A stretch of DNA of 63,609 nt, counting the filler. It is 6 parts of 6 records of this genome, joined end to end, with 100 filler letters (N's around TTAATTAATTAA, not from the genome) between each part and the next. Parts side by side here need not be neighbours in the genome. Positions count along the whole stretch, not along the records: positions 53,744 to 63,609 come from SRR31156797_18324; 5 more parts are not named here. The stretch is one strand, 5' to 3'. A program made the position numbers and the translations under genes. Numbering within the stretch: position 1 is the stretch's first letter; every line of letters starts with the position of its first letter. Positions 37,835-63,609 of the stretch are shown here, piece by piece. Under the pieces are notes generated by a model. The model saw nothing but the letters and a program-made list of their open reading frames with translations. It was not told the origin of the DNA and did not search any database.

Positions 37835-37835
37835 T

Positions 37836-43026: not shown

Positions 43027-43046
43027 AACCCTTGATAGTCAGGAAG

Positions 43047-44450: not shown

Positions 44451-44469
44451 ACCTGATAGGTGAACGATT

Positions 44470-45138: not shown

Positions 45139-45468
45139 ATGAAATGGATATGGCTCGCTAGCTCAATCATTCTGGAAGTTGCAGGAACAACAGCGTTAAA
45201 GGTAGCCTCGCAAGGAGGCAAGTATGCAATATTGTGGGGTGTTTCCGTTATCGGCTTTTATGCATCCTGCTTCTTTTTCATGGGCGTGGCCTTTCGTCAT
45301 TTTGACTTGGGCCTGGTTTACGCTGTCTGGTCAGGCGTAGGCACGTCTATGATTGCGATTATCGGAGTGCTGTTCTTTGGAGACGGCATGAGCCTGATGA
45401 AGATCGCTTCAATCACTTTAATCATCATTGGCATCGTCGGCCTCAACATGGCCGGCGTCCAACATTAA
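45139..45468 (+). CDS. SMR family small multidrug efflux protein
   Basis: WIWL...LEVAGTTALK (Glu14 equivalent), YAVWSGVG, four TMs. Confidence 0.93.
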   Translation: MKWIWLASSIILEVAGTTALKVASQGGKYAILWGVSVIGFYASCFFFMGVAFRHFDLGLVYAVWSGVGTSMIAIIGVLFFGDGMSLMKIASITLIIIGIVGLNMAGVQH

Positions 45469-45487
45469 CTTTTTTGGTGAGACAAAA

Positions 45488-47029: not shown

Positions 47030-47109
47030 AACATAATTATCTGAAAATGTAATTATAATTTAAGATTCATGATGTAATTTGAGTGGGTCTTGCTCCCGTT
47101 TACGCGGCC

Positions 47110-47143
47110 TTGACATTTTTACCGGGTACTGGTATGACCTCTT
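47110..47143 (+). promoter_or_regulatory. Sigma-70 promoter overlapped by a FadR-type operator
   Basis: TTGACA-17 nt-TATGAC; TACTGGTATGACCTCTT resembles the FadR box AACTGGTCNGACCAGTT and covers the -10. Confidence 0.65.
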
Positions 47144-47159
47144 ACCAGAGCCAGGAGAA

Positions 47160-47867
47160 ATGAACATGCTAAACGAACCCGTGCTGCTGAAACCGACTCA
47201 ATATGCGGAAAAACAGCTTATTTCCAAAATTCTTGACGGCACATTTCCGCCGGGCGGATTCCTGCCGGCCGAAAGAATGCTTGCTTCCCAACTCAAAGTC
47301 ACCAGGCCGACCCTGCGTGAAACAATACAACGCCTGGCCCGTGAAGGCTGGCTGACTATCAGGCATGGAAAACCGACCAGGGTGAATAATTACCTGACCG
47401 AGGGCGGACTTGGCGTGCTCAGCACCATGGCCGGATACGGGCATCATTTGGGCCCGGACACGGTCCTGCATATGCTGCAGGTCAGGGACGCGCTGATTCC
47501 TTCCGCCGCGAGAATGGCTGCGGAAAATGAACCGGAACAATTAATCGCCCATCTTGCCAAGGCGGAAACCCTGTCCGACGACCCCTTTGAATTCGCTTCC
47601 TTTGACTGGGAACTCCAGATCCTCATGACCCGCTTGTCTGGCAATTCAGTTTTTTCCATGATTTTCAACGATTTTGAAAATGTATACCTGCTTATGGCCC
47701 ATGGATATTTTATAAGTGAGCAATCGCGCCGACTGTCCCGCAATTACTATGACAAACTACTCGATCATCTCACCAACCGAAAGCCGGGCCTGGAAGACGT
47801 GGTTCAGGAAACAATGGAAAAAGTCAATTCCTTTTGGCGGGAATTGATGGAAGAAGACCGGGGCTGA
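47160..47867 (+). CDS. fadR: Acyl-CoA-responsive FadR (GntR HTH + FadR C-terminal domain)
   Basis: LPAERMLA..VTRPTLRETIQRLAREGWLTIRHGKPTRVNNYLTEGGL, the E. coli-type FadR signature. Confidence 0.88.
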   Translation: MNMLNEPVLLKPTQYAEKQLISKILDGTFPPGGFLPAERMLASQLKVTRPTLRETIQRLAREGWLTIRHGKPTRVNNYLTEGGLGVLSTMAGYGHHLGPDTVLHMLQVRDALIPSAARMAAENEPEQLIAHLAKAETLSDDPFEFASFDWELQILMTRLSGNSVFSMIFNDFENVYLLMAHGYFISEQSRRLSRNYYDKLLDHLTNRKPGLEDVVQETMEKVNSFWRELMEEDRG

Positions 47868-47894
47868 ACAAATCCCCGACCCGTGGAGGATATC

Positions 47895-49523: not shown

Positions 49524-49567
49524 AAGCCATGCCCTAATCGGGCCGGAAGTTACACCATCCGGGAGGA

Positions 49568-51271: not shown

Positions 51272-51555
51272 TCCGGAATTATCAGAACACGTAAATTAAA
51301 TTCCCTGCCTGTAGACCGGTAGTCGCCGCTTGTTTCTTTTGCGACCAATCCCCGTATATCCATATTTTTAGGGGGCGGCGGCCGCTGCTCCCCTAAATAT
51401 CTTTGAATCCAGAAGAAAACTATTGGGCGCTTTTTCAATATTTGCTATAATACTCCAATTCTAAAAGCAGCTTTTTAAAAAACGGTGTTTGTTTAAGTGC
51501 AACTGAATCGCGATGTTTGGGCGTGTACTCATGCGGATTGAGGGAGGTTGGATCC

Positions 51556-52941
51556 ATGAGCGCTGGAAAGGGATTATTGCATCTGGACATGAACCGTCGC
51601 CAGGCCCTGGGCGCTATCGGCGGCGCCCTGGCTGCTTGCGCGACAGGTTTGAACTGGCCGGCATTGGCGAGTGAAACGAAGCGGCCCAATGTTATTTTTA
51701 TTCTGGTCGACGACCAGAGGTGGGACCACATGGGCAACATGGGACACCCGTTTCTGAAAACGCCCAACATGGACCGCCTGGCCCGGGAAGGCGTCCGCTT
51801 TGATAACGCTTTTGTCACTACTTCATTATGCAGCCCTTCCAGGGCGAGTTTTCTGACCGGCCAATACGCCCACACCCACGGCGTCAAAAACAACCTAACT
51901 CCATGGAGCAATGACAACGAGACTTACCTGGAACATTTTAAAAAAGCGGGCTATGACACCGCCTTTATCGGCAAGTGGCACATGCCCGGAAAACTGCCTG
52001 AATTAAGGGGAGTGGACAAGTTCATCACCTTTACGGCCCAGGCCGGGCAGGGGCAGTATTTTGATTGCCCGCTTATTGTTGACGGCAAGGAGGAGCCGTC
52101 CAGAAAAAAATACATAACCGAAGAACTGACGGACAGGGCCCTTGAATATTTGGAAGAGCGTACGGACAAGCCTTTTTGCCTGTACCTGTCGCACAAGGCC
52201 GTGCATCACCCGTTTTTACCGCCTTCGGACCTGGACAAGCTATACGAAAATGAAAAACTGCCCCTGCCGGATGAATACGATTCCTGGGTTTCATGGTTTA
52301 ACGGCTTGGTTTTTTCAGGCGTTCTGGGTCCGCTTGAAAGAGTTTATCGTAATTATTGCGAAGCGCTTGTCTCGGTGGATCGCCAGGTTGGTCGCGTATT
52401 GGACTGGCTGGATAAAAACGGGCTGGCTGAAGACACTATAGTTGTTTATGCCGGGGATAACGGATATTTCTGGGGCGAACACCGGTTGGTGGACAAGCGT
52501 TGGCCTTACGAAGAATCCATTCGCGTGCCTCTGATTATCAGGCATCCCCGTTCAGTCGCCAATGCCGGGCAGAGTGCTCCGCAAATGGCTTTAAACCTGG
52601 ATGTGGCGCCCACCATCATGGAAATGACCGGCCTGCCTATTCCCGAAAAAATGGAAGGCCAAAGCCTGGCCCCTGTTTTGAAAGACAGGAACGCCCCTGG
52701 CCGCAAAGCCTGGCTTTATGAATATTTCAAGGATTTTCCCTATAATGTTCCGGAACTCAAGGCCGTTCGCACCGACAGGTATAAGTATGTTAAATATGAA
52801 GGCAAGAGACCGGACGAATTGTTCGACCTGAAAAGCGACCCCCGGGAAAAAAACAACCTTATGGGAACAGAGGAAGGAAAAAAGGTCCTTCCCTTGCTTA
52901 CCTCCATGCTTGACGACCTGAACAAGGGGGTGAAATTATGA
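51556..52941 (+). CDS. Tat-exported Cys-type sulfatase
   Basis: NRRQALG Tat motif; DDQR, LCSPSRASFLTG (CxPxR), GKWH, GDNG. Confidence 0.95.
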   Translation: MSAGKGLLHLDMNRRQALGAIGGALAACATGLNWPALASETKRPNVIFILVDDQRWDHMGNMGHPFLKTPNMDRLAREGVRFDNAFVTTSLCSPSRASFLTGQYAHTHGVKNNLTPWSNDNETYLEHFKKAGYDTAFIGKWHMPGKLPELRGVDKFITFTAQAGQGQYFDCPLIVDGKEEPSRKKYITEELTDRALEYLEERTDKPFCLYLSHKAVHHPFLPPSDLDKLYENEKLPLPDEYDSWVSWFNGLVFSGVLGPLERVYRNYCEALVSVDRQVGRVLDWLDKNGLAEDTIVVYAGDNGYFWGEHRLVDKRWPYEESIRVPLIIRHPRSVANAGQSAPQMALNLDVAPTIMEMTGLPIPEKMEGQSLAPVLKDRNAPGRKAWLYEYFKDFPYNVPELKAVRTDRYKYVKYEGKRPDELFDLKSDPREKNNLMGTEEGKKVLPLLTSMLDDLNKGVKL

Positions 52942-53516
52942 TCCGGACAAACAATCCGGTCAAAAAGCAAAATTTCCTTATAAGGGTTATCCTGACTCCG
53001 GCCCCTGTTTTCATCCTTTTTTTTGCGGCCTTATACCTTCATAATAATCTGTGGCGGTACGGCCTGCCGCCGGTAACCAGAATCGGCGGGCATATTTCTT
53101 TTTTTATTTTTCTGATCTGCTACTTTTTCGGCGCCTTTTACGTTTATCCTAAAGCATATTTTCGAGGCGCCGGGCCGATTGAAAGGATCTTTGCGGGTCT
53201 TGTCACCCCTGTAACATTTATCGTTTACGAAATTGTCAGGGTCAGCGAGTTTTTTACCTTGGGTGAATCGGTATATTACGGCTTCAGCACAATCGGCCTT
53301 TTGCCGATTACTGTCAATATAGGTTTTATGGGATTGGCTGAAATGATTTGCCGGGCGCGGGTTCGTCGCCTTGACTACCCGATTCCGGTTGTCGCTCCGC
53401 TTCCCCTTTTCGCCTTCGCCCTGCTGCCTGCCGGCGTTTACGTTATGTTCATATGGGGAATGGGAACTCATTGGTTTTATATTTATCAAGAAGGGTATAA
53501 ATTTCTTTTTCACTGA
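52938..53516 (+). CDS. Hypothetical integral membrane protein
   Basis: About five hydrophobic helices; ATGA overlap with the sulfatase stop. Confidence 0.75.
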   Translation: MIRTNNPVKKQNFLIRVILTPAPVFILFFAALYLHNNLWRYGLPPVTRIGGHISFFIFLICYFFGAFYVYPKAYFRGAGPIERIFAGLVTPVTFIVYEIVRVSEFFTLGESVYYGFSTIGLLPITVNIGFMGLAEMICRARVRRLDYPIPVVAPLPLFAFALLPAGVYVMFIWGMGTHWFYIYQEGYKFLFH

Positions 53517-53581
53517 TTATTGAGTTCAACCACCGGCTCTGCCGTTTCCTGCATGTGCAACAATCTTTGGGTCGAGAAAAG

Positions 53582-53616
53582 GGGTCAGGAGCCTTAAAAT
53601 AAAAGGCTCCTGACCC
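53582..53616. repeat. 14-bp perfect inverted repeat (terminator or REP-like palindrome)
   Basis: GGGTCAGGAGCCTT-7 nt-AAGGCTCCTGACCC near the contig end. Confidence 0.7.
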
Positions 53617-53643
53617 AATACTGTCCGGAACGGAAATTGAATA

Positions 53644-53743
53644 NNNNNNNNNNNNNNNNNNNNNNNNNNNNNNNNNNNNNNNNNNNNTTAATTAATTAAN
53701 NNNNNNNNNNNNNNNNNNNNNNNNNNNNNNNNNNNNNNNNNNN
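53644..53743. other. Artificial contig spacer
   Basis: N-run + TTAATTAATTAA + N-run. Confidence 0.98.
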
Positions 53744-54066
53744 TGCCACGCAATCTGCCACTACTCATACAATCAACCGTGAATTATATTTTTAAAAGCT
53801 TGTAATGTCTTATATATCTGGCTAATATGGGGTTTGTGTAGTAGGGTGAGGAAATACAATTTACCATACAAATGGATAAACTAAACACCTAATAAATATC
53901 AAAAAAACTGTTGATAACTTTTATATATTTTTATTTGCTGAGAGGCTAATTTATGATGTTTTGCAGGGAAAAAGACTTTTATTGCAATCTAGGAGAGTAA
54001 CAATTCAATAAAAAGTTCGTTTGAATGTAATAGATAATAAATTAACCTCATTCAAAATATCTATTC

Positions 54067-55374
54067 ATGAAAATATTCCTAACAACTTTAATAATTGCAT
54101 TATCATTAACTGTTAATGCGCAAAAACTATTGCCGGAAAGTACAACTATTCCATGCTGTGATAACAAATACCATCTTTCAAATGAACCTATTACGAATAG
54201 AGAGTATATAACCTATTTGAATTGGTTAGAGTCCGTTTATAACAGCTTCCCTTTATTGAATAAACAAGTTTATGAAGCATTACCAGGAATCCTTTCGGAT
54301 GATATTAATAAGGATTTCAAAAATAGTAATGATTTTATCTACCATGTAACAGTCAATTTTCCGAATGCAAAACTATCCTCATTTGAGGATAAAACTGTGA
54401 GAAACCAGCTTATAAAGTCGAACAACAAAGCTGTAAAAACCAAAGACTTCAAATGGCCATACACATATTTCGAAGGAGATGGTAAAAAACAAGTTTACAA
54501 GCTTCATAAGTCTCTATACTTGGAAAATGCAACAAACTATGTAAAGGATTACATGTTTAATCCTAAATACCTTGATTACCCAGTTGTTGGTCTATCTCAA
54601 CTTCAAGCTTTAAAATATTTAAAGTGGTTAAGTGACCGATATAACGAATCTCAGCTTTTTGATAAAAAGCTACTACATTTTGACTCCAACCAATTAGGCG
54701 AAAACTGTTTTGTGACAGAGGCATACTTGGCAGAACAATATGCTGGTATACCTTCTGAAAAACATCCAGAGCATAACCTAAAATGGAATTCTGGCTTATT
54801 TCTTCCTTCTTTTCGTTTGCCTTGTGCCTATGAGCTAAATAAAAGGGATGATAAGATTGAATTTAAGGAGTATAAGAAAGATAAACTTAAGTTCTTAAAA
54901 CCTTGGTTATTTGAATTGAACATGAAAAGAGAAGAATATAAAATCACCTACTCAGAATACAATATAGAAATTGGTTTAAATTTATTCTCCTCTTTTAATA
55001 AGGAGTTTGAACTAGATTATTTTGAAAAAGAGATACTAACTCTTAATAGTCCTAATAATCAAGCTGAAAAAAATTATCTAAATCTTTTAGCCGATTTAGG
55101 CTATCCCGTAATCTCAATAAAGAAATTTCTTGATTCAGAAGGTTATGAGATTGAAAAAAATGCAGATGGCAACATGTGGTACACCATCATTGATGCGGAC
55201 GAAAGTGGTACGCTTACTTATATAGATAATTTTAAAACTCAAGAGTTTTTTGAAGCATCTAAAGATAAAGGTTGGAAATATAGAAATGAATATTTTAAAC
55301 TTCCATTAAAGCATGAAATTAATGATGATTTAAGGCCAGTTAAATTTGTGTTTACAACAATTCTTAATAATTAA
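54067..55374 (+). CDS. Secreted protein with degenerate FGE-sulfatase (GldJ/GldK-like) domain
   Basis: Signal peptide ending NAQ; EPITNREY, YMFNPKYLDYPVVGLSQLQALKYLKWLSDRYNE, FRLP. Confidence 0.65.
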   Translation: MKIFLTTLIIALSLTVNAQKLLPESTTIPCCDNKYHLSNEPITNREYITYLNWLESVYNSFPLLNKQVYEALPGILSDDINKDFKNSNDFIYHVTVNFPNAKLSSFEDKTVRNQLIKSNNKAVKTKDFKWPYTYFEGDGKKQVYKLHKSLYLENATNYVKDYMFNPKYLDYPVVGLSQLQALKYLKWLSDRYNESQLFDKKLLHFDSNQLGENCFVTEAYLAEQYAGIPSEKHPEHNLKWNSGLFLPSFRLPCAYELNKRDDKIEFKEYKKDKLKFLKPWLFELNMKREEYKITYSEYNIEIGLNLFSSFNKEFELDYFEKEILTLNSPNNQAEKNYLNLLADLGYPVISIKKFLDSEGYEIEKNADGNMWYTIIDADESGTLTYIDNFKTQEFFEASKDKGWKYRNEYFKLPLKHEINDDLRPVKFVFTTILNN

Positions 55375-55377
55375 ATA

Positions 55378-56403
55378 ATGATAATTGTTCTTAATCAATT
55401 AAATATGAATATAAGATTAGTTCTTATCCTGATTGTGTTATCTATCAGCTCAATCCCTGCATATAGTGAGACTACCTTTGAGCGTGGCTTTAAAGATGGT
55501 TACAAAGAAGGTTATTGTTACAACGATTATGGTTGTATTGCACCGATTCCTCCAATAGCACCAATTCCCAATGTTAACGAAAGTAAAGATAACTACCAAG
55601 ATGGTTATAATAGAGGCTTTAAGCGTGGCATGGAAGATAAAACAAGAGACTTAAAAAAGAAGCAAAATCAGGCAACTCCTAACACACAACAATTAAATAA
55701 TCATAAATTCAAAGATTTCACAGGAGCAGATATGAGTGGAACTTTACAAGCTCTGCCTGAAGTTGAGATGCCATCACAATCATCTATAAATAGAAAGCTA
55801 TGGGAACAAAATAGAAGCAGCGCAATTGCTATTGAGCAAAGCTATAGGTCTTTTAATTCATACCCTTCAAGCATTTCAAATGGCTGGCATAATGTTATCT
55901 GTGTAAGTAAACAAACAAACCAAAGAATTTCTGCAAAGGTACTTGTGTCATCCAATTTAATTAAAGATATAGAACCAGGAAAAAAGGCGGCTCATATCGA
56001 TATGAGTGTCACATACCCTACAAAAATTAATAACGCAAAAACATCCTTGCAATTAACATGGAACTATGATGGAAGTATTAAGGTTTTTGATGTTTACTTT
56101 TTTGAATATCTAAATAACCCAAATTCTTCTGCCACGCCACCATTAAAGAAAGGAAAAGTTAGTTTTTGGACTAATTGGAAGAAAGCAATAGGAACTAAAA
56201 TTTATATAGAGGATGAATATATTGGTACTTTCTATGGATACTTTACTGATGGAGAACCCAATTGTGGACAAGAAGGTACTGTAACATATGAAAACAAAGC
56301 TGGCAAATACTCTTTTAAAGCTTATTCCAAAAAGAAAGGCAATTGGGCTGGCACTATAGAAATCAAAGAAGAGGACTGCTCTACGATATTACTAGGTGAA
56401 TAA
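55378..56403 (+). CDS. Hypothetical secreted protein
   Basis: Signal peptide; GFKDGYKEGY/GYNRGF repeats around PIPPIAPIP; beta-rich C-terminus with Cys pair. Confidence 0.7.
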   Translation: MIIVLNQLNMNIRLVLILIVLSISSIPAYSETTFERGFKDGYKEGYCYNDYGCIAPIPPIAPIPNVNESKDNYQDGYNRGFKRGMEDKTRDLKKKQNQATPNTQQLNNHKFKDFTGADMSGTLQALPEVEMPSQSSINRKLWEQNRSSAIAIEQSYRSFNSYPSSISNGWHNVICVSKQTNQRISAKVLVSSNLIKDIEPGKKAAHIDMSVTYPTKINNAKTSLQLTWNYDGSIKVFDVYFFEYLNNPNSSATPPLKKGKVSFWTNWKKAIGTKIYIEDEYIGTFYGYFTDGEPNCGQEGTVTYENKAGKYSFKAYSKKKGNWAGTIEIKEEDCSTILLGE

Positions 56404-56513
56404 AGCTATCTGTGCATTAGATTATAATTCGAATAATCTTTAAAAAACTATAGTTGTAAGCTATCTAATAGCATATAACTTATTTCATTAAAATATGCTT
56501 ATCACGAAATAAA

Positions 56514-56915
56514 ATGAAAGGTGAATTTATGGAGAAAAAGGAAGAATTTTCTAAATCAGAACTTGAGAAAATACTGGTAATGTATAGTGAATTGAAAGTC
56601 TTATTTGATTCAGTTGAATATAAAGGTCTTGATTTTAAGGCTAAAAACGATGTAACATTTAAGGGCTATAGTGGCACGACAGAAAAGGAATGTGTTGAGT
56701 ACACTGAGGAAGTAATTAAAAATTTTGGTGATACCATTTATATTCATGAAGATGAACCTAATCAGGAAATGTTACCAATTTACAGAGATATGTATTTGCG
56801 CTTTATTGAGAAAAGAACTTCATCAATCTTTAATAGGTTAGAATCATCAGAACAACAAAGAAAAGAATTCATTGACTTTGTTGTGTATGGCGATACTAAA
56901 TTAAGCTGTAAATAA
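56514..56915 (+). CDS. YfbU-like protein
   Basis: ILVMYSEL..FKGYSGTTE..EMLPIYRDMY resembles the YfbU C-terminal part. Confidence 0.5.
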   Translation: MKGEFMEKKEEFSKSELEKILVMYSELKVLFDSVEYKGLDFKAKNDVTFKGYSGTTEKECVEYTEEVIKNFGDTIYIHEDEPNQEMLPIYRDMYLRFIEKRTSSIFNRLESSEQQRKEFIDFVVYGDTKLSCK

Positions 56916-56976
56916 GTTAAAATACTTTTTAGTTGTAGAGTGATAGAGCTCGGCAAACAAATAAAAATAATATTTA

Positions 56977-57852
56977 ATGATTTTTCCCGATAATAAAGAT
57001 TACCCAATATTCGCCGAAGGTATTGGAGACTTCAAAAATTTTGAAATACGACTTAATAAAGACCCTAAAGACATTGATTACGGTGATAGAATACTAATTT
57101 ACCATTGGAAACACCTAGCTGATTATAGATACTTGATTGTTGTAGGAAATAAAATTCCCCAAGGTGGTGGATATAGGAGGGCAAAATTAACATTTGATAA
57201 TCCTAAAGGGGAAAAGACCGTTGAAACTCAAGTAAAATTTGAAGAGGGTGTTTTACATACCAAGCTCCCTAATATTAGAGAAATTTCATTATTAGCTATT
57301 CAAAATATTTCTATTCGATACTCTTTTAGGAGCTATAATAAATATATTCAAAGAGAACTAGAAAGAAGCCGCAAAATTAAAGATTATGAAAAAGCGGAAA
57401 AAGAAAAAAGAGAAAAATACTGGAACAGTCCAGAAGGAAAGCACATTTTGAAATTGTTTAATGATGAACAGGAACAACTCAAAAAAGATAAGTTGGAAAA
57501 AAAGCGTGAAGCATGGTCTTGGTTTAACAGGTCTTTTTTACTTTATCTTGATGCAATAAAAATTTGGGATGCTAAGAAAGAACCATTTATTGATGAAATT
57601 TTAGAGCTTAAAAAGCAAAGAAGAAATTTAGGCGGTGAGGATAAAAAGAAGCAAAAAGAGTTATTTGAAAAAACTAACAACCTTAGGCGTGCTTTGCGAA
57701 AAGAACAAAATGATTTCATGAGTAAATACCAATGGCCTCGCACTATTTGGGGTAATTTGAAGTATTGCCCTCCTGAGTTAGAACAAGAAATTCGTACTTA
57801 CGTAAATAAGCACAATATCCCAATTAGACCACAAGTGGATATCGATAGTTAA
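56977..57852 (+). CDS. Hypothetical protein with charged helical C-terminus
   Basis: 291-aa ORF, family not recognised. Confidence 0.7.
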   Translation: MIFPDNKDYPIFAEGIGDFKNFEIRLNKDPKDIDYGDRILIYHWKHLADYRYLIVVGNKIPQGGGYRRAKLTFDNPKGEKTVETQVKFEEGVLHTKLPNIREISLLAIQNISIRYSFRSYNKYIQRELERSRKIKDYEKAEKEKREKYWNSPEGKHILKLFNDEQEQLKKDKLEKKREAWSWFNRSFLLYLDAIKIWDAKKEPFIDEILELKKQRRNLGGEDKKKQKELFEKTNNLRRALRKEQNDFMSKYQWPRTIWGNLKYCPPELEQEIRTYVNKHNIPIRPQVDIDS

Positions 57853-57856
57853 TATG

Positions 57857-57901
57857 GCTATTTTTCCAGTAAATGTTTACGTTATTTGTTGGAAAAATAG
57901 C
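57857..57901. terminator. Bidirectional terminator between cargo genes and the lysis cassette
   Basis: GCTATTTTTCCA...TGGAAAAATAGC 12-bp perfect stem, extendable with G-U pairs, between convergent stops. Confidence 0.75.
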
Positions 57902-57912
57902 ACATATTTTAT

Positions 57913-58473
57913 TTAATGAATAAATAAAATTGCATCAATCCTTCTCAACCACCCTTTCAAAAATTTATGATTCTGACCTTTCTGAGCAATGGTGTTGTAA
58001 TAATGGATGCGAGCAGATTTAATAGCATTAAATAATGATTCCGGGTGACATGAATTAATCGCCTTAACCGTATTCCTTCCAATAATACCATCCAATTTAA
58101 GGTCATATTCAAAAAAACGGTTCAATACTTTTTGAACTCCACAGCTACCCCAGTAACCACTATTTACGCACCAATCAAAAATGATTTCTTGCAAAGGACC
58201 AGAAACAATATAGCCTATTTTATATTTATCGTAGAAGTTATGCTTGTAGAAATCCTTAACCAATTCCGTTAATCCTGGAATATCTAGCTTTGTATTCCGC
58301 TTTATTTCTCCAAACGCTTGTTTGTATTCATCAATAAGCTGCCAACCATCCCAATTAGGATGTAAGTTCCGGGCTACACCCATATAGGTTTCACCACCTT
58401 TATCTCCGATTACGTTGGCATAATAGCCTTCATGTTTGATTACACCATCAAACAATTCATCAAAAGTCTTCAT
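57913..58473 (-). CDS. Glycoside hydrolase family 108 endolysin with C-terminal peptidoglycan-binding domain
   Basis: HEGYYAN..DKGGETYMGV, FDWCVNSG, DGIIGRNT, FLKGWLRR. Confidence 0.92.
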   Translation of the reverse strand: MKTFDELFDGVIKHEGYYANVIGDKGGETYMGVARNLHPNWDGWQLIDEYKQAFGEIKRNTKLDIPGLTELVKDFYKHNFYDKYKIGYIVSGPLQEIIFDWCVNSGYWGSCGVQKVLNRFFEYDLKLDGIIGRNTVKAINSCHPESLFNAIKSARIHYYNTIAQKGQNHKFLKGWLRRIDAILFIH

Positions 58474-58882
58474 TCTTACGTTTGGTTTTAAGTTTTACAT
58501 TGTTTACTCCTGATATTGCACCACCGAAGAGAAAGTCAATAATGGTGCTTAGTTTGGTGGATATTCCACCGTTGATACTGCTTATGAAAGCTATTTGCCA
58601 ATCCTGCAATTCAATTGTTTGAAAAACAAAATAGTTGAGCATAATGAAGGTCAGACCACACCATGCAACCAGGAAGAAGATTGCAAATGTTTTTTGCAGC
58701 AAGCTGTCCTGTGCATACATGGTTCTTGCTGAATCTCGGTCGGCAACCGCCATTTTAAAAAGCTCCATTTTTCCCTGGAGCTTTTCTTCCTGAGTAGTAA
58801 AAATCTCATCAATGAGTTTTGTACCAACCTTGAGTGTTTCCGTAACTCCGGCATTGGTTAGTTTTCCAAATATCTTTCTCAT
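58460..58882 (-). CDS. Holin (3TM/GTA-release-holin-like)
   Basis: TTQEEK..ADRDSARTMY, two TMs, IIDFLFGG; overlaps the endolysin start. Confidence 0.7.
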   Translation of the reverse strand: MRKIFGKLTNAGVTETLKVGTKLIDEIFTTQEEKLQGKMELFKMAVADRDSARTMYAQDSLLQKTFAIFFLVAWCGLTFIMLNYFVFQTIELQDWQIAFISSINGGISTKLSTIIDFLFGGAISGVNNVKLKTKRKNEDF

Positions 58883-59211
58883 CGCTCTACAAATTTTAAG
58901 ATGGTATCTAGCTTCTCATTAAGCTGCTTAATTGTTTGGTGAAACAGCTCCTTACTAACATAAATTTCTTTTGAGCTATCTCTTAAATCAGAAACACGCT
59001 TATGCAGTATGGCAAACTTGTTTTCAGCTCCTTCCAATTCTTTAGTAAGGTGTTGAATATCCTTCTCAAGTAAATCGGTCTTAGCATCAACGGTTTCTTT
59101 AGTGGCATTTTTAGAAATAGCATTGCGGATTATGTATGAGAGTACACCTACTGTGAGAGAACTCAATCCGGCTATAACCACCCAATAGAATTTAATTGTC
59201 ATTTCTTCCAT
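58879..59211 (-). CDS. Membrane-anchored coiled-coil protein of the lysis cassette
   Basis: True start likely MEEMTIKF at 59211, right after the ATPase stop; one N-terminal TM then a coiled coil ending KLDTIL. Confidence 0.7.
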   Translation of the reverse strand: MEEMTIKFYWVVIAGLSSLTVGVLSYIIRNAISKNATKETVDAKTDLLEKDIQHLTKELEGAENKFAILHKRVSDLRDSSKEIYVSKELFHQTIKQLNEKLDTILKFVER

Positions 59212-59212
59212 G

Positions 59213-59845
59213 CTAAAAGATTTTAATGGTTTCTGTACTACCCTCCGGAAAGCGGTTTTTCTCCATCGTTGCACTTTGATTTTCAATGTGCATAATAGCA
59301 TCCACAAGATGTTCGTATTTCGTTCCACCTTTAGATGTCCCGTCACGGTTTGCTTGATTGATGATTACAAATGAGGTATAGAGATATTGTTTCTTCAGCT
59401 CAACAAGTTCCTCGTGCGATACTTCAGTAGTTTGTGTACTATCAATAAATACCACATCGTAATCCTTGAATAGTTTCGGATTGTAATCTTCAATTATTCC
59501 AATCGGACTGTTAATCCCAAGTCTTACTACTTTCTCCTGCATTGTTCCTTTTGCACCTTCTTCATTGGCTACATACAGGACTTTATAACCATGCTGTTTT
59601 ACCAATTCATCGGCAAACATCAAGGCTACGGTACTCTTGCCATGAAAGCGTGAGCCGTAAATCATTATATAGAATGGGATATACAGCTTGCCTAATAGTT
59701 TACCGAATCTTCCCCTAATGGAGATGGTCTTAAAATTCATCTTGGCAAGGTCGTTTGCTAAAACAACCTGGTCGGATGCGATGACTGCGGTTCTCGTGGT
59801 GCCGGGATTGAATGCCCTGTTTTGTGAGCCACTACTTTTGGGCAT
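59213..59845 (-). CDS. RecA-superfamily (RadA/Sms-like) P-loop ATPase, probably made as a frameshift fusion
   Basis: Walker A GSRFHGKS, VLYVANEEG, Walker B VVFIDS, NQANRDG..GGTKYEHLVD, EKNRF. Confidence 0.85.
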   Translation of the reverse strand: MPKSSGSQNRAFNPGTTRTAVIASDQVVLANDLAKMNFKTISIRGRFGKLLGKLYIPFYIMIYGSRFHGKSTVALMFADELVKQHGYKVLYVANEEGAKGTMQEKVVRLGINSPIGIIEDYNPKLFKDYDVVFIDSTQTTEVSHEELVELKKQYLYTSFVIINQANRDGTSKGGTKYEHLVDAIMHIENQSATMEKNRFPEGSTETIKIF

Positions 59846-59869
59846 GGAAGTAGTGGCATTTACTTTCCC
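59812..59869 (-). other. -1 programmed ribosomal frameshift signal: G GGA AAG plus H-type pseudoknot
   Basis: Slip site 59869-59863; spacer TAAAT; S1 GCCACTACTT/AAGTAGTGGC; S2 ATGCCC/GGGCAT; -1 frame open into the ATPase. Confidence 0.85.
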
Positions 59870-60726
59870 AATCCGGCAATGCCTTGTAGCCCTTTTAACT
59901 GAACATTGGTAACAAGCAGCTTGTCACTCTCCAGATAATCATGTAAATGCTTTTGGACGTTTTTCACCTGTTCAAATTCTTTGTCGGACTTGTTGACCTT
60001 ACCGTTTTTCAATGAATTGGTAACTGTAGTAAGTAAGCGTTGGGCTTTTGCTTTTGTGATATTGCCATATAAATTGATAAACCTTTTAATCAATGCAACT
60101 GCCGGAGTAACACCATAGTCATCCACAATCTTTTTAAGCTTTGTGTATAGTGAATCCGGAACTTCAAACTTGCAAGTACCATTCATTTCTTTGTAGGTCT
60201 TAATCAAGTCATTACTTATGCTTTTAATTTCAGAGGCGTACTTGCTTGATTTGCGAATGGTCTTTTCGGTAGCAGCCTTTTGAATCACCTTATACAATAG
60301 CGATACCTGACGTTCTGTTACCTTCTTATTGTGGAAGTTCAGATAACGCCTGATTACCTTAATCTCCAACGGCATCAAATCAACCTCAATGGGTTTTCGT
60401 TGTGCTTTTTTTGGTACTGCCATTTTCTTTGTTGCTGTCCGTTTGGGTGAAGCTTTCTTTGTCACATTTTTTGTTGATTTTTGAGACAAGGTAGTCTTCT
60501 TCTTCGCTGATGTTTTCTTTGGTGCAGGGCTTTTCTTTTCTGAATCCTTTAGGTAAGGTTCAACGATTTTGAAATGATTATCCAACATCTCTTTTATATC
60601 CTTATCCTCATTGTAGAAATCGGCAAATGAATCGAACTCTTTATGTGCTTCCTGTGCTGCTTCCGGCAACTTTTTGAAGTCAATATTTTTGGTGGCTTCC
60701 TTGTAGTTTTTGATTGTTAATTTCAT
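59860..60726 (-). CDS. Basic hypothetical protein with histone-H1-like linker and duplicated helical domain
   Basis: SPAPKKTSAKKK..KKASPKRTATKK linker; IRRYLNFHNK / IKRFINLYGN internal repeat; ends GIAGLGK. Confidence 0.85.
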   Translation of the reverse strand: MKLTIKNYKEATKNIDFKKLPEAAQEAHKEFDSFADFYNEDKDIKEMLDNHFKIVEPYLKDSEKKSPAPKKTSAKKKTTLSQKSTKNVTKKASPKRTATKKMAVPKKAQRKPIEVDLMPLEIKVIRRYLNFHNKKVTERQVSLLYKVIQKAATEKTIRKSSKYASEIKSISNDLIKTYKEMNGTCKFEVPDSLYTKLKKIVDDYGVTPAVALIKRFINLYGNITKAKAQRLLTTVTNSLKNGKVNKSDKEFEQVKNVQKHLHDYLESDKLLVTNVQLKGLQGIAGLGK

Positions 60727-60760
60727 ACTATTTGATATTAAGTTTTTAGTACACTATTTA

Positions 60761-63091
60761 TTATTCGCTGCCCTTCGCAAGGGCTTGTTTCTGTTTAATG
60801 CGAATTGCTTTAGCCCTGATTTTGGCAAGTTTCAGTTTGCGTTCTTTGCCCACTATCACACCTTTGTTCACGCTGCCTTTTTCGGTCAGGTCGATGTATT
60901 CATCGGCTCGTTTATCGGTAAATGGTTCAAATGATTTTATGGATAAATACTCCTTGATTGCATAAATCAGGTTATCAAAGCACTTGTTGATGTAAATGCG
61001 TTCCTGACCCTGCGGATAAACAGGATGAGAAAACATACCTCCTGATACCAAGTAGTTATTTACCCGGTCCTTTTCCTTTAGCTTGTCGTACACATAACAT
61101 TCAAAGCTTCGAGCAAACATCTCAGCGATGTTTTTCCAATAGGCACCTTGAAGTTTGGAGTAGTGATACAGGTAGCTATCGGTCGGTCGCTTTTTAGAGC
61201 CATTAGAATTGAAATTATCATAGCTCACACAGATACCGCCTTCTGCACCGTAATAACCAAATCTAAGCATGACGATTAATTGCGCAATGCTCTGATGAAG
61301 GACTGTTTTAGGAACGTCATCTTCTAAAACAACCTTTAATATCGACTTGAACCAATCTTTTGTTGGGGAGGATTTACTGCCAATGAAATACTTCTTGCGA
61401 TACCCTAAACTTTCAATGATGGTATTCAGATAGCTTTCTGAACGCAATGGTTTGGTTGATAATTCTAAACCATTCAAATAATGGTCAAAGAAATGCCCCC
61501 ACTCATGGGCTACCGAACCGTCACCGTTACGTTTGGTCAGGTTGATGAGCTGCCGTGTTGGGTAATAAGTAGCCATTGCTTTACCACCACGACCGAATGC
61601 ACCGAATGCAATAGCCAGGGCTTCGTTTATGGATAGGTTGATGTCAAGTACCTCGCATAAATCAACGATGGCTGCAACAAAGTGGCGAATGTGTTCCCTG
61701 GCTTCATCATCCTTCACATAGTTTCCTAATGTGAGCGATTTAAAATGAAGCTTTTTGATAACCGTATTTTCATCCGCTTCTTCAATTAATAAACCTCCTG
61801 TGCGTTTGATATATGATAGCGGTACGGCTTCTATTTTAGGCTTGCTGCTGCTTTTTGATTTGCTTGCTTTCTTTGTTTCTGCCCAGCTCCAATCAGGTTT
61901 AAATTCCTTGTATGGAAATTGCTCTTTTTTCTGGTTATATTCACGTTTGGCATCATTTATAAATCGGGTACAAACCTGAGTGACATACCTTACATAGTCT
62001 TCTACAGTTCTAACGCTGCTCAACATTCCACCCCTAAACGTGAGGTCGGTTTGCTTGTGACGTTTCATATCTGCTGTTGAAATGATTTGGTGAGCTGAAT
62101 CAATACAATCGTTCTGACGTTTGATTTTCATTTCCATCAAGTGTTTCAACTTTGCAGCATGAGGCTCTGCCTGCTCCTTTGTTACTCCTGAATAGTGATG
62201 GGCTTTCATGTAGGTTTCCTTAACCGCATTGGTTGTGCGGTAGCCCTTAATGGTAAAGACAATGTTGCGCAGAGCCTTCCCAAATATTAATCCAAAATCA
62301 TACTTGCCAACAATTTCACCATTATTGGCGATGGTTTCGAGTTGTTGTAAATTAGTAATTGTAATGGCATCATGCAGAACTCTTACAAAAGCCTCTGCCA
62401 TTCTCACATATTGCTCCCTGGCTTCTTTGGTAGCTTTATGTGGCTTGGGTGGGAATGCCTGACGAATCTTTACTTTCAGGAATGCACACCCAGCATCTGT
62501 ACCATTTTCTTTTTCTGCTTGTGGGTCAATCTTTGGAAATACCTTATCCTTTTTGACCAGCTCGATGGCGGTAGCTTCGTCCTGTTCGATGCTGTTTAAA
62601 TCGCTACTACTAATTAGTTTGTTGTACATGGCTTGTTCCTTTCTGGAACCATGAACACGCTTCCCGGCATCCTTAAATTCCCGGTTCTTTTGCTTCTCCT
62701 GTAAAGCTTTCTCGACTTCCGTGTCAATATCCCCAAGATTTTCATTGGGGGTTGCTAAGTTGGCGCAATAGTTTTCGTATAAAGACCATTCATCGCTGAT
62801 AATAAAGAATCCATCATTGGGATTAGGTTTGTAACCTTGCTTTGTTTTGTAGCCATTCCGACCTTCAACGAATCCTTGTTTGGGTAGAATCCAAACGAAG
62901 TCACCTTTTCTCGATTTATATCGGGTTGCAATAATATCGGTTGCTTTCTCAAAACCTTTATAGATGGGCAAAGCATTGACATTAACGCCCTCTTTAAAAC
63001 CATTGGCTAATATGGAAACCTTTGATTTTCCTTTGGTGCGAATATCCTTGTGAATGGCTTTATACTTTTTATAAAACTCCTTTTCCGTCAT
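60761..63091 (-). CDS. Polyvalent protein with zincin-like metallopeptidase and LPD1-like domains
   Basis: DAGKRVHGSRKE, LAIAFGAFGRGG, GSVAHEWGHFFD (HExxH), EMFARSFECYVYDKL..NNYL..YPQGQER. Confidence 0.8.
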   Translation of the reverse strand: MTEKEFYKKYKAIHKDIRTKGKSKVSILANGFKEGVNVNALPIYKGFEKATDIIATRYKSRKGDFVWILPKQGFVEGRNGYKTKQGYKPNPNDGFFIISDEWSLYENYCANLATPNENLGDIDTEVEKALQEKQKNREFKDAGKRVHGSRKEQAMYNKLISSSDLNSIEQDEATAIELVKKDKVFPKIDPQAEKENGTDAGCAFLKVKIRQAFPPKPHKATKEAREQYVRMAEAFVRVLHDAITITNLQQLETIANNGEIVGKYDFGLIFGKALRNIVFTIKGYRTTNAVKETYMKAHHYSGVTKEQAEPHAAKLKHLMEMKIKRQNDCIDSAHQIISTADMKRHKQTDLTFRGGMLSSVRTVEDYVRYVTQVCTRFINDAKREYNQKKEQFPYKEFKPDWSWAETKKASKSKSSSKPKIEAVPLSYIKRTGGLLIEEADENTVIKKLHFKSLTLGNYVKDDEAREHIRHFVAAIVDLCEVLDINLSINEALAIAFGAFGRGGKAMATYYPTRQLINLTKRNGDGSVAHEWGHFFDHYLNGLELSTKPLRSESYLNTIIESLGYRKKYFIGSKSSPTKDWFKSILKVVLEDDVPKTVLHQSIAQLIVMLRFGYYGAEGGICVSYDNFNSNGSKKRPTDSYLYHYSKLQGAYWKNIAEMFARSFECYVYDKLKEKDRVNNYLVSGGMFSHPVYPQGQERIYINKCFDNLIYAIKEYLSIKSFEPFTDKRADEYIDLTEKGSVNKGVIVGKERKLKLAKIRAKAIRIKQKQALAKGSE

Positions 63092-63609
63092 AGTATGGTC
63101 TTGATTTTAGGATGAGTACCAAGCCCGGCAACTGCCCGAAGCTGTTTCTGCTTAATCAGGATTGCCTTTGCACGGAGCTTCACAAGCTTCAATTGTTTAC
63201 CTGTGTCAATGCTTACCTTTTTACCTTTAGGTGCGGATTGCTTTTGTTTGGCCAGTCGTTTGGGAAATTCCTTTTTGTCTTGCTCAAACATCTTCATCGC
63301 CTCATTGGTAAGGCTATCGGTGGAGTTGCTTCGCTTTGTTCCCTTATCCAAAAACTCATCGTAGTAATGGCGTGGGATTTTAACCGAAAGGCTAAACCGC
63401 TCACCAAGCAGATTAAGAAGTTTGGGCATCTTTCTTTCTTCAACCGAAGCCCTCATATTTCCCGAAACCATTTCAAATCCATCCCGATTATTAACCAGAA
63501 GCTTCACTACATTTTTATCGGTATAAATGGGAATGTGAGTTTTGGTTTTAGGCATGATGACCTTAAAAGTGCCATCATAATGCCTGGCTATTGTAATCCT
63601 GTTTTCGGT
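63088..63609 (-). CDS. C-terminal part of a larger protein, 5'-truncated by the window edge
   Basis: Frame open upstream of the ORF-track Met (TENRITIARHYDGTFKVIMPK...) to position 63609; ends with the shared basic tag. Confidence 0.8.
   Translation of the reverse strand, partial: TENRITIARHYDGTFKVIMPKTKTHIPIYTDKNVVKLLVNNRDGFEMVSGNMRASVEERKMPKLLNLLGERFSLSVKIPRHYYDEFLDKGTKRSNSTDSLTNEAMKMFEQDKKEFPKRLAKQKQSAPKGKKVSIDTGKQLKLVKLRAKAILIKQKQLRAVAGLGTHPKIKTIL

Follow-up and report, generated by a model that had tools for sequence, protein, structure and literature searches.

Related systems

In the late operon of phage lambda, a -1 frameshift at the heptamer G_GGA_AAG yields the tail-assembly chaperones G and GT, a short and an extended product, at a fixed ratio. 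RadA/Sms proteins form a DNA-handling family, and the ATPase used by known jelly-roll viruses is of the FtsK/HerA type. The Salisaeta phage SSIP-1 is described in published accounts as a tailless, membrane-containing virus with T=49 and possibly a single jelly roll (PMC6260650, PMC6356626, PMC4958249). Among the polyvalent proteins of phages and conjugative elements, Iyer et al. (2017) catalogue LPD1, zincin peptidase, the methylase-helicase dyad and the SMS/RadA domain as modules, the latter being ascribed mainly to conjugative elements or plasmids (PMC5512222).

The locus described here (positions 57,913-63,609) probably represents the promoter-distal part of an operon with virion and lysis genes, carried by a temperate virus that is integrated in Bacteroidota genomes and whose particle is predicted. 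The element would be about 45-57 kb in size and lies, in one copy, beside a tRNA-Ser gene. It appears to belong to an undescribed and widespread family of integrated Bacteroidota viruses of the tailless type, for which SSIP-1, judged by sequence similarity, is the nearest cultured relative.

Gene organization of the locus

The window, i.e. the whole stretch of 63,609 nt that was analyzed, was put together from six unrelated contigs with N44-TTAATTAATTAA-N44 spacers between them, and the seven-gene run is located on one 9.9-kb contig (positions 53,744-63,609). All seven minus-strand ORFs of the preliminary description (P1 to P7) are present. Recomputation of ORFs and junctions confirmed that they are co-oriented and tightly packed, with, from P1 to P7, an overlap of 4 nt, gaps of 34, 14 and 1 nt and overlaps of 4 and 14 nt. 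The gene names given there agree with the family matches (P2 LPD1, P4 ATPase, P6 holin, P7 GH108). It was also stated that no tail, terminase, portal or capsid gene adjoins the lysis genes. Within the window this is uninformative because the window is a join of six contigs, but complete relatives also lack a match to such hallmark genes.

P1 (63,088-63,609; 173 codons) is cut by the contig end. It had been introduced as a tagged protein; the tag is there, but P1 is the mere 3' end of the gene for an Sbno-like SF2 helicase, which in a complete relative comprises 1315 aa with AAA_34 and Helicase_C_4 domains. The tag RAKAILIKQKQ (63,142-63,174) is followed by AGLG (63,118-63,129). P2 (60,761-63,091; 776 aa) is a polyvalent-type protein with a CLCA_X-like zincin domain (motif HEWGH at 61,493-61,507) and LPD1 (E 5e-19), which matches phrog_18947 (E 1.4e-69) and carries the tag RAKAIRIKQKQ at its module end (60,785-60,817). 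It is optional in the family and was found in 38 of 68 loci. The C-terminal tag proposed to be shared by P1 and P2 is retained in relatives, where a basic helix [KR]x[KR]A-I-x-I-K-Q-K-Q occurs at each polyvalent module end, no matter whether the modules are separate or fused. The motif has 136 matches, which come from 59 of 70 sources and without exception lie on the operon strand; 110 of them are 30 residues or less from the ORF end. The remaining 26 are internal; in all of those listed, the motif closes one part of a methyltransferase ORF and more protein follows. We read the helix as a candidate signal for incorporation or processing common to these proteins. The helicase, P2 and the methyltransferases, which in relatives are located further upstream of helicase and P2, would be built into the particle, delivered with the DNA and blunt restriction. 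This role as invasion cargo is suggested by analogy with phage P1 DarB and with the structural protein gp43 of SSIP-1.

The lysis cassette starts with P5 (58,879-59,211, from an internal ATG), a membrane-anchored coiled-coil protein of i-spanin-like architecture with a transmembrane segment at residues 6-24 (phrog_462, 4.8e-5; Rz-like spanin weakly, 0.008). P6 (58,460-58,882) is a putative holin with one strong transmembrane segment and a charged C-terminus (phrog_3427 holin, 2.2e-5), and P7 (57,913-58,473) is a GH108 muramidase with a PG_binding_3 domain, matching endolysins (phrog_315, 5.3e-29). By family membership, the i-spanin-like protein, the holin and the GH108 endolysin would free the particles. 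As described before, a terminator-like hairpin follows P7 (57,857-57,901); it has a 19-bp stem and is located between convergent genes, facing both directions. The rest of the contig (53,744-57,852) carries four accessory genes on the plus strand, with ORFs of 435, 341, 133 and 291 aa, to which a family search assigned no firm family. They are probably variable cargo of the element, and the 291-aa ORF resembles a cargo gene of the relative G001, inverted relative to it.

Predicted frameshift between P3 and the ATPase

P3 (59,860-60,726; 288 aa, pI 9.9) is a basic protein with a Lys/Ala/Thr-rich linker and the C-terminus ...AGLGK, for which family searches gave no match. The slippery heptamer G_GGA_AAG (59,863-59,869, minus strand) abuts its stop codon (59,860-59,862), and 5 nt past the heptamer a predicted stimulatory hairpin begins (59,828-59,857; dG -14.5 kcal/mol, z -2.37), whose stem comprises 10 bp and whose 10-nt loop holds the ATG of P4. 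Heptamer, stop codon and the 5' arm of the stem form a site that was found in 65 sources, one of them with G_GAA_AAG. In the hairpin alignment 89.4% of the cells are paired vs 27-62% in slid controls, and compensatory changes affect 4 of the 10 stem pairs (10 cells), a value equalled by none of 500 shuffles. In all 63 parsed loci the P4 frame is -1 relative to P3. An ATG at the P4 start of the window is missing in 25 of these 63, the first in-frame ATG being located 38-125 nt past the P3 stop, and in many of them the protein similarity still begins at residue 2. Natural in-frame fusions of P3 and the ATPase exist as well (491 and 724 aa). The -1 ATPase fusion of the preliminary description is thus borne out by the heptamer, the covarying hairpin, the start-less relatives and the in-frame fusions, and a programmed -1 frameshift joining P3 to the ATPase is well supported at the sequence level. 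Frameshifting at G_GGA_AAG would give P3 and a P3-ATPase fusion of about 504 aa at a fixed ratio.

P4 (59,213-59,845; 210 aa) is a RadA/Sms-type ATPase of the RecA superfamily, predicted to be made alone and as the -1 fusion. It matches phrog_6891 ("ATPase", 8.8e-20) and RadA, as well as KaiC/AAA_24 weakly, and is not of the FtsK/HerA type. In a genome whose small elements share the capsid-like family, this ATPase was not found elsewhere. Both observations count against the viral reading favoured here. P4 would be a virion-borne, DNA-handling ring ATPase. We slightly favour a delivered module that would circularise or integrate the incoming genome; alternatively, it may be a packaging motor, as proposed for gp40 of SSIP-1. 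The earlier suggestion that the ATPase helps to load tagged proteins is not favoured.

Relatives and layout of the complete element

The relative G001, a 44,997-bp IMG/VR provirus (CheckV completeness 98%), shows 83% nucleotide identity over positions 57,919-63,609. In genomes, 68 loci with the ATPase were identified, mostly in Marinilabiliaceae, and synteny is maintained in them, with neighbours in the same order around the ATPase. The loci were found by an ATPase search, hence the ATPase is present in 68 of 68 by design; P3, the transmembrane protein, the holin and the GH108 protein of G001 occur in 64, 66, 65 and 59 of them, respectively. The layout in relatives runs from a primase over a structural block rich in membrane proteins, a spike-like protein and the split polyvalent array to P3 and the ATPase, the lysis cassette, cargo and an integrase, which adjoins tRNA-Ser in one copy. 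An integrase, suggested earlier as something to look for, is present in the complete relatives. The spike-like protein (833 aa) contains a beta-helix and fibre-like 49-residue repeats, and the structural block also encodes a membrane-anchored lytic transglycosylase. Several copies of the element occur per genome.

Among the 38 ORFs of G001 outside the run (the seven genes were scanned separately, as the window's own proteins), PHROGs and Pfam at E<=1e-3 gave no match to a terminase, portal, HK97 capsid or tail-tube/sheath protein. One transglycosylase domain of G001 weakly matches families named head, tape-measure or tail-injection. In a genomic copy, the flanks contain RteC together with a type I R-M system and no structural genes. 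The ordinary tailed-phage module that might have been expected upstream was not found in the relatives.

Jelly-roll protein of the structural block

The most conserved protein of the family has 281 aa and is 77-100% identical across five genomes, vs 55-93% for the ATPase. Its model (pLDDT 76.6) contains a jelly roll of 190 residues and not an HK97 fold. The best Foldseek match is the capsid protein of SPV1 (6oj0_A, E 3.3e-5, probability 1.0). In the VIA comparison Z is 8.8 (rmsd 3.4-3.6 over 147-148 aligned residues), barely above the Z 7-8 usual for models that have no clear match. The next structural neighbours are the capsid jelly rolls of PBCV-1, EhV, Faustovirus, SGIV, PRD1 P3, HCIV-1, SH1 and P23-77, and almost all top neighbours are capsid proteins; of the 108 BFVD matches with E<=1e-3, many are capsid proteins as well. 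Jelly rolls occur in non-capsid proteins, too. A second protein, of 127 aa, was modelled as a generic beta sandwich only, and a sequence search against solved chains found no similarity for either protein. In IMG/VR the capsid-like gene occurs in two contigs, and since both are classed as proviruses it is unseen in free-virus data. A capsid fold, suggested earlier as a target for structure search, may be represented by this jelly roll, and we assign the 281-aa protein with moderate confidence, on a moderate fold match, as a single-jelly-roll capsid-like protein.

Nature of the element

One of the two earlier proposals was that these genes form the late operon of a provirus that is unusual, possibly tailless, and has tagged internal proteins. 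It gained support from the integrated relatives of about 45 kb and the lysis cassette, and its tailless aspect further from the lack of any Caudoviricetes match, the jelly-roll protein and the ATPase homologous to gp40.

A much less probable reading is an integrative element that is not a virus and is mobilisable, carried by vesicles or moved by another route. Its polyvalent proteins would escort the DNA as in conjugative transposons, the jelly roll would not be a capsid protein, and the lysis genes would either be left over or serve for release. The regulatory end with RteC and HTH_17 resembles Bacteroidota conjugative transposons. The several copies per genome, the SMS/RadA domains ascribed mainly to conjugative elements (PMC5512222), the lack of a free-virus record in IMG/VR and the moderate jelly-roll match point the same way. 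Against this stand the complete holin-endolysin cassette, with which the operon ends in no fewer than 59 of the 68 loci, the ATPase and a second protein that match proteins annotated as structural in the SSIP-1 record, the top structural neighbours of the 281-aa protein, almost all of them capsid proteins, and the 38 further ORFs of G001, in which Pfam detected no relaxase, coupling protein or Tra family.

It is unlikely that the element is an ordinary tailed prophage, so divergent that profile searches miss its terminase, portal, capsid and tail genes. The beta-helix and fibre-like repeats of the 833-aa protein, the tape-measure and tail-injection matches of the transglycosylase and the IMG/VR classification of relatives as proviruses would fit it. 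However, large-terminase ATPases are usually recognisable, the gap of about 13 kb between primase and transglycosylase holds no ORF that matched a terminase or portal type, the only ATPase is small and RadA-like, and the most conserved protein is a jelly roll. The other earlier proposal, a holin/peptidoglycan-hydrolase release system, which would be type 10-like and export the tagged proteins, is very improbable. Holin and GH108 adjoin large tagged proteins without signal peptides, and there is a weak match of P7 to the model for holin-associated muramidases, but with 42.6 bits vs a cutoff of 240. P7 resembles the endolysins of SSIP-1 and phrog_315 just as much, and the genes close the structural operon of a mobile element with integrase and primase.

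Comparison with known systems

The integrated virus favoured here shares with SSIP-1 a similar genome size (43.8 kb circular in SSIP-1, roughly 45 kb here), an integrase, a homologous ATPase, a GH108-type endolysin and methyltransferase modules, present in SSIP-1 as the giant virion polyvalent protein gp43. P4 matches gp40, annotated as structural ATPase in the SSIP-1 record (tblastn E 3e-5; profile E 3.2e-17; hhalign 97.3%). Among the other proteins, one of 836 aa matches gp34, a structural membrane protein of transglutaminase-like type (E 1.7e-4), the methyltransferase of the family matches structural gp43 (E 2.6e-4) and P7 the gp31 endolysin (23% identity, 197 aligned columns, E 5e-6), three of these four links being weak and coming from small-database BLAST. 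The 281-aa and 127-aa proteins show no sequence similarity to any SSIP-1 protein by BLAST or profile comparison. On inspection, gp43 contains no tag motif and the gp39/gp40 junction no heptamer. Gene order differs, SSIP-1 has one polyvalent protein of 2319 aa whereas the modules here are split and tagged, and the hosts are Salisaeta vs Marinilabiliaceae and Flavobacteriales.

In structure, the beta domain of the 281-aa protein comes closest to SPV1 VP4 (Portogloboviridae) and to the vertical jelly-roll capsids of PRD1-like and giant viruses. This likeness does not go beyond the fold (about 10% identity), the 281-aa protein adds an N-terminal acidic helix and an Arg-rich helix, and the family is without the FtsK/HerA-type ATPase of known jelly-roll viruses. 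With the polyvalent proteins catalogued in PMC5512222 it shares the module types of P2, the helicase, the methyltransferases and the ATPase. Here, in contrast, most modules have a gene of their own, all share a basic helix at the C-terminus, and a predicted ribosomal frameshift links the RadA module to its partner; neither the helix nor the frameshift was found in passages of that paper. As in lambda G/GT, the same heptamer would give a short and an extended product at a fixed ratio in a late operon, but the proteins are unrelated, the extended product here gains an ATPase, and the heptamer lies directly at the stop codon, upstream of a hairpin.

The seven-gene run and its contig

The window consists of six pieces (1-12549, 12650-22688, 22789-37862, 37963-43729, 43830-53643 and 53744-63609), which are joined by N44-TTAATTAATTAA-N44 spacers at 12550-12649, 22689-22788, 37863-37962, 43730-43829 and 53644-53743. 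The GC content swings between 29% and 55% along the window because six separate contigs were joined, and the gene content also differs strongly from piece to piece. The run under study therefore sits on a contig of 9,866 bp with contig ends on both sides, and neighbourhood arguments across the spacers are invalid. The rpoN-lptABC-PTS cluster at 14-22 kb lies on another contig and is no neighbour of the run.

The ORF listing revealed seven minus-strand ORFs from 63609 to 57913 (P1 to P7), all in one orientation. With the start of P5 taken at an internal ATG (59211), the junctions from P1 to P7 are, in order, an overlap of 4 nt, gaps of 34, 14 and 1 nt and overlaps of 4 and 14 nt. The preliminary description of a co-oriented run with overlaps or gaps of at most 34 nt was thereby borne out. 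P1, the 3' end of a helicase gene, is truncated by the contig end. P2 combines an LPD1 domain (E 5e-19) with a HEWGH zincin motif and matches phrog_18947. P3 is a basic protein (pI 9.9) with no family match and no usable match in the ESM Atlas. P4 is a small P-loop ATPase, for which KaiC and AAA_24 were found below the Pfam cutoffs, phrog_6891 (“ATPase”) at E 8.8e-20, RadA in a PDB profile search at E 1.5e-5 and TIGR00416 (sms) at E 7.9e-6. The last three genes resemble a lysis cassette, of which the endolysin P7 (GH108 and PG_binding_3) is firm and the holin P6 is weak (phrog_3427, E 2.2e-5; one strong TM segment). P5 resembles an i-spanin solely in its architecture, a single TM segment at the N-terminus and a coiled coil (Rz-like phrog, E 0.008). 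A hairpin with a 19-bp stem (57857-57901) is located between P7 and a convergent gene. In the probable source run X1, the contig 53744-63609 has a word depth of about 2,190, its first ~35 bases have a depth of 7,569 with several different continuations, and a diverged variant contig covers 61067-61448 at a depth of 31; these figures are not copy numbers.

The complete element in relatives

Via P2, a single close relative was found in IMG/VR. This record (G001) comprises 44,997 bp, is classed as a provirus with a CheckV completeness of 98% and aligns to window 57919-63609 with 83% nucleotide identity. It was mapped over its complete length by PHROGs, Pfam and protein sequences. The map starts with an HTH_17 excisionase-like protein, DUF4406, a 1039-aa DnaG-type primase, a YhgA-like transposase and DUF4248, followed by proteins of 261, 402 (PLD-like) and 313 aa (HA-domain). 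Next are an 836-aa protein (9384-11894) with TM segments at both ends, a 221-aa membrane protein (11929-12594) and a 281-aa protein (12681-13526), whose N-terminus is acidic, whose C-terminal part is beta-rich and which also contains an Arg-rich stretch. After them come proteins of 144 (127 from ATG), 278, 116, 366 (coiled coil; 15184-16284) and 102 aa. Then there are a lytic transglycosylase of 214 aa with a TM anchor (phrog_873, E 2.6e-35) and a protein of 833 aa that matches a beta-helix weakly and contains fibre-like repeats of 49 residues. A 603-aa DNA methyltransferase, a 226-aa C5-methylase fragment and a 1315-aa Sbno-like helicase (AAA_34 and Helicase_C_4), of which P1 is the end, lead to the homologues of P2 to P7. 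Behind these, cargo genes fill about 12 kb and encode MORN, TPR, DUF6946, Abi_alpha and CoiA-like proteins; the map closes with a tyrosine integrase of the Bacteroidota type, encoded on the opposite strand. The only hints of a tailless, icosahedral particle with an internal membrane are TM segments, which were seen by eye in the 836-, 221-, 366- and 214-aa proteins; P5 and P6 were covered by a TM scan. Pfam searches at E ≤ 1 added nothing for P3, P5, P6 or the 836-, 221-, 278-, 116- and 366-aa proteins.

With a profile of the ATPase (A1), 68 loci were found in species-representative genomes. They occur in Saccharicrinis, Carboxylicivirga, Plebeiibacterium, Marinilabilia, Breznakibacter and Gaoshiqia as well as in several Bacteroidales MAGs and a few Flavobacteriales MAGs. 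Frequently a genome contains several of them, and frequently they are located at the end of a contig. A comparison by tblastn with the proteins of G001 showed that synteny is kept over the 68 loci, the constant order being 366-aa protein, 102-aa protein, transglycosylase, 833-aa protein, methyltransferase, (226-aa fragment), helicase, (P2), P3, ATPase, TM protein, holin and GH108. P3 was detected at 64 of the 68 loci, the TM protein P5 at 66, the holin at 65, GH108 at 59, the helicase at 50 and P2 at 38, all counts being limited by the flank and by contig ends. One compact locus (L084) runs from the structural block directly into P3 and the ATPase, without methyltransferase, helicase and P2. 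These three therefore represent optional cargo.

In a genomic copy of the element (G002:C20), genes for tRNA-Trp and tRNA-Ser lie directly beside the integrase. An att repeat of the tRNA-Ser end was not found in 20 kb on the other side, and past the opposite end there are RteC and a type I R-M system but no structural genes. The gene of this RteC-family regulator (L099:5755-6357, minus strand) lies just outside the IMG/VR provirus boundary and adjoins the HTH_17 gene. RteC beside HTH_17 is a regulatory pairing that is known from Bacteroides conjugative transposons. With RteC outside the boundary, IMG/VR may therefore have drawn the provirus too short. Between endolysin and integrase, the cargo varies, with ~12 kb in G001 and ~27 kb in G002:C20. 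On the window contig, a 291-aa ORF (56977-57852, plus strand) is related to a cargo gene of G001 (35156-36139) and inverted relative to the operon. A 435-aa cargo protein (54067-55374, plus strand) starts like a signal peptide and contains a short segment with weak similarity to GldJ/GldK (E 4.8e-12, far below cutoff). Many draft assemblies break in or beside the element, some genomes have three or four copies and one MAG chromosome has four loci, which suggests recent activity.

Hallmarks of an ordinary tailed phage, considered for the upstream region in the preliminary description, gave no match there: at the sensitivity of sequence profiles, with structure models for two proteins, none of the 38 additional ORFs scanned in the 45-kb relative had a PHROG or Pfam match at E ≤ 1e-3 to a terminase, portal, HK97 capsid, tail-tube or sheath protein. 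The run is probably the late operon of an unusual, possibly tailless provirus, and this part of the earlier proposal is the best-supported reading. The second proposal, release of proteins by a holin and a peptidoglycan hydrolase (type 10 secretion), was rejected, as P7 reaches 42.6 bits with the holin-associated muramidase equivalog NF040573 at a cutoff of 240.

The capsid-like protein

The 281-aa protein is encoded by the best-conserved gene of the element, with 77-100% identity in five genomes compared to 55-93% for the ATPase. It has 111 close homologues, all of them without a name and without a Pfam domain. An AlphaFold model was calculated from a 23-row alignment (A2) that included 27%-identical paralogues. 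The model (pLDDT 76.6) consists of two long N-terminal helices, the first acidic and the second Arg-rich, and an eight-stranded sandwich. In a Foldseek search against the PDB, the capsid entry 6oj0_A of the portoglobovirus SPV1 was the top match (E 3.3e-5, probability 1.0). An independent run of VIA-align also placed 6oj0 first (Z 8.8, rmsd 3.6, 148 residues aligned), followed by PBCV-1 (8.7), EhV-201 (8.4), Faustovirus (7.8), SGIV (7.7), PRD1 P3 (7.0), ASFV p72 (6.8), HCIV-1 (6.7), SH1 (6.3) and P23-77 VP17 (6.0), where Z values of 7-8 are common according to the tool's own note. The BFVD gave 108 matches at E ≤ 1e-3, including SPV1 VP4 and capsid proteins of giant viruses and CRESS viruses. 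With a deep profile of the family (A5), no solved chain scored better than E 0.26. Taken at the level of the fold, the model gives moderate support for a vertical jelly-roll of the capsid type. Ahead of the jelly roll, the model pairs the acidic helix with the Arg-rich helix RSRRRRRRRSRRGRRR, and this pair looks like a masked DNA-binding arm.

The family is widespread in sequence collections. Out of 1.84 billion cluster representatives, the profile matched 686 at E ≤ 1e-3, none of them annotated, and still 348 at 1e-10. In the host order, 17 of 201 sampled genomes encode the protein. Virus catalogues hardly register it, with only two IMG/VR contigs, both proviruses, and no match in 50,697 phage records. 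In a Flavobacteriales MAG (G006) there are three further copies of a 209-aa capsid-like homologue with 28% identity. The copy that was mapped (L103, G006:C1:1331000-1350999) belongs to a second, much smaller type of element of ~13 kb, which occurs three times in this MAG and encodes a VapE-like helicase, a TM coiled-coil protein, a 963-aa protein with zincin, LPD1 and transglutaminase-like (PF04473) domains, the 209-aa homologue, small proteins of 61, 115, 101 and 113 aa and an M15 endolysin.

The 127-aa protein was considered as evidence for a penton and dropped. Its model is a generic jelly roll with no Foldseek match at E ≤ 1e-3, and VIA-align placed a GOLD domain on top (Z 8.2) with capsid proteins at 6.5-7.2. 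In the ESM Atlas it matched unnamed clusters only. Since it has no specific match, it was left out of the evidence for a virus. By hhalign, the 281-, 127- and 258-aa proteins and the 101- and 113-aa proteins of the small element showed no paralogy to one another.

A conserved signal for a probable frameshift between P3 and the ATPase

P3 ends with GGA TTG GGA AAG TAA, which contains the heptamer G_GGA_AAG (59869..59863, minus strand). After a 5-nt spacer follows a 10-bp stem (59857..59848 pairing with 59837..59828), whose loop holds the ATG of P4 (dG -14.5 kcal/mol, z -2.37). The features expected of a programmed -1 frameshift, namely a slippery X_XXY_YYZ in the zero frame, a spacer of 5-9 nt and a downstream structure, are all present. 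Slippage by -1 would yield a product of ~504 aa, reading AGLGK-VNATTS-MPKSSG across the junction.

P4 is in the -1 frame relative to P3 at all 63 parsed loci, a count that leaves out one mis-parsed locus. At 25 of them there is no ATG at the start position of the window, and the first in-frame ATG is located 38-125 nt beyond the P3 stop; in many of these, the tblastn similarity to P4 nonetheless begins at residue 2. The heptamer, the stop codon and the 5' arm of the stem were found in 65 sources (50 distinct sequences), one with G_GAA_AAG. Over 49 distinct sequences, 89.4% of the cells pair, versus 27-62% when the partner is slid. Compensatory changes were observed in four of the ten stem pairs (10 cells), a result reached by none of 500 shuffles; one other measure, that of further pair types, was not above the shuffles. 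There are also natural in-frame variants. P0210 (491 aa) joins a P3-like part to the ATPase and reads through GVAGIG, P0209 (724 aa) joins a duplicated P3-like part to it in frame, and P0211 (369 aa) is a fusion of LPD3 and ATPase. Together, the sequence comparisons strongly support a predicted programmed -1 frameshift that would join P3 to the P4 ATPase.

The helix at module ends

P1 ends with RAKAILIKQKQ and P2 with RAKAIRIKQKQ. A loose pattern of this C-terminal basic helix, searched in 2,325 stop-to-stop ORFs of 70 sources, occurs 136 times in 59 sources and always on the operon strand. 110 of the occurrences are within 30 residues of the ORF end, in helicase, P2, C5-methylase and short methyltransferase genes. 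The other 26 are internal. In all of those listed, the motif closes one stretch of a methyltransferase ORF, usually with L-S-L-G-K-L-P behind it, and another 65-287 residues follow. The helix thus marks the ends of modules, whether fused or split, and since it is also present in loci without P2, it is independent of the P2 zincin.

After the tag, the helicase continues with AVAGLG (AGLG at window 63118-63129), and P3 ends with IAGLGK exactly at the frameshift junction (AGLG at 59866-59877). The motif [ILVM]xG[LIM], counted in the proteins of the relative, is enriched in four of them: the 836-aa protein (11 observed, 3.7 expected), the 221-aa protein (4 and 1.2), the 366-aa protein (8 and 1.1) and P3 (3 and 0.3). 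This motif, including AGLG, may represent sites of a maturation protease. The tag itself could serve as a protease site or as a capsid-targeting signal.

Role of the ATPase

P4 could be a delivered DNA-handling module, or it could be the packaging motor; the former is slightly favoured. The polyvalent modules catalogued by Iyer et al., an LPD domain with a zincin peptidase, a methylase-helicase dyad and an SMS/RadA module, are all present in the elements, with LPD1 and HEWGH in P2, the methyltransferases and the Sbno-like helicase upstream in relatives, the RadA-type P4 and the LPD3 fusion of P0211. These authors (PMC5512222) count SMS/RadA among the polyvalent-protein domains of Bacteroidetes, with a suggested role in “circularization or integration”. 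A delivered module would also fit an ATPase that comes after the polyvalent array and is fused to exchangeable partners. In addition, the ~13-kb element has a capsid-like homologue, and profile A1 found no RadA-type ATPase in it or elsewhere in the MAG beyond that of the large element.

[quoted passage not shown] This role is consistent with the ATPase gene being kept in the compact locus L084. An FtsK/HerA packaging ATPase, one of the possibilities raised earlier, was not found, and the only small ATPase in the relative, of KaiC/AAA_24 and RadA type, has no other candidate beside it. The idea that the ATPase loads the tagged proteins, which formed part of the preliminary description, found no support and was set aside because RadA-type ATPases act on DNA.

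Relation to Salisaeta icosahedral phage 1

A tblastn search of P4 against 50,697 phage records matched eight, two of which are records of the one SSIP-1 genome. The match is gp40, with 25.7% identity over 82% of P4 (E 3e-5); profile A1 (E 3.2e-17) and hhalign (97.3% probability) agree, and P4 is thus a counterpart of the gp40-type virion ATPase. The SSIP-1 record annotates gp40 as “ATPase, structural protein”, gp43 (2319 aa) as “DNA methyltransferase, structural protein” and gp34 as a structural protein. By BLASTP, the 836-aa protein matches gp34 (E 1.7e-4), the methyltransferase gp43 (E 2.6e-4) and GH108 the endolysin gp31 (E 5e-6). A common Cys/His/Asp transglutaminase-like motif, which the BLASTP match spans, was seen by eye in the 836-aa protein and gp34; with Pfam empty for the former, this reading draws on the weak gp34 match and on PF04473 in the 963-aa protein of the small element. 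Neither the capsid-like profile (A2) nor that of the 127-aa protein (A3) matched any of the 57 SSIP-1 proteins by profile search or hhalign, no tag motif was seen in gp43 and no frameshift site at gp39/gp40.

Our literature searches returned no description of such elements. As far as these searches reach, the family seems to be new to the literature, and so do the module tag, the frameshift and the capsid-like protein. Polyvalent domains and the SSIP-1 kind of virus are already known. If particles are confirmed, the elements would represent temperate viruses of a kind that is common among Bacteroidota of marine habitats and sediments but has been overlooked, and provide a genetic handle on the addressing of large enzymes into a capsid. 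They would also contribute a bacterial -1 frameshift signal that is clean and conserved and has both fused and unfused variants in nature. Carriers in culture include Saccharicrinis, Carboxylicivirga, Plebeiibacterium and Breznakibacter xylanolyticus DSM 6779, and the readings are therefore directly testable.

We tentatively propose, as a possibility that is rather unlikely in its full extent, that the elements and SSIP-1 form a large unrecognised lineage of tailless, membrane-containing temperate viruses of Bacteroidota. Their single jelly-roll capsid would be SPV1-like, the first bacterial counterpart of the archaeal portoglobovirus type, and their ATPase of the RadA and not the FtsK/HerA type. 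Separately encoded anti-restriction enzymes would be loaded via the C-terminal helix, as a capsid-targeting or protease-processing tag, and the ATPase, carried along as a frameshift fusion, would be set free at the AGLG junction. SSIP-1 has stood alone since 2012 and is classed by NCBI as an unclassified dsDNA phage. It is outlined in PMC6260650 as a tailless, membrane-containing virus of ~100 nm with T=49, a 44 kb circular dsDNA genome and a “single jelly roll?”, and PMC6356626 and PMC4958249 assign it two types of capsid protein.
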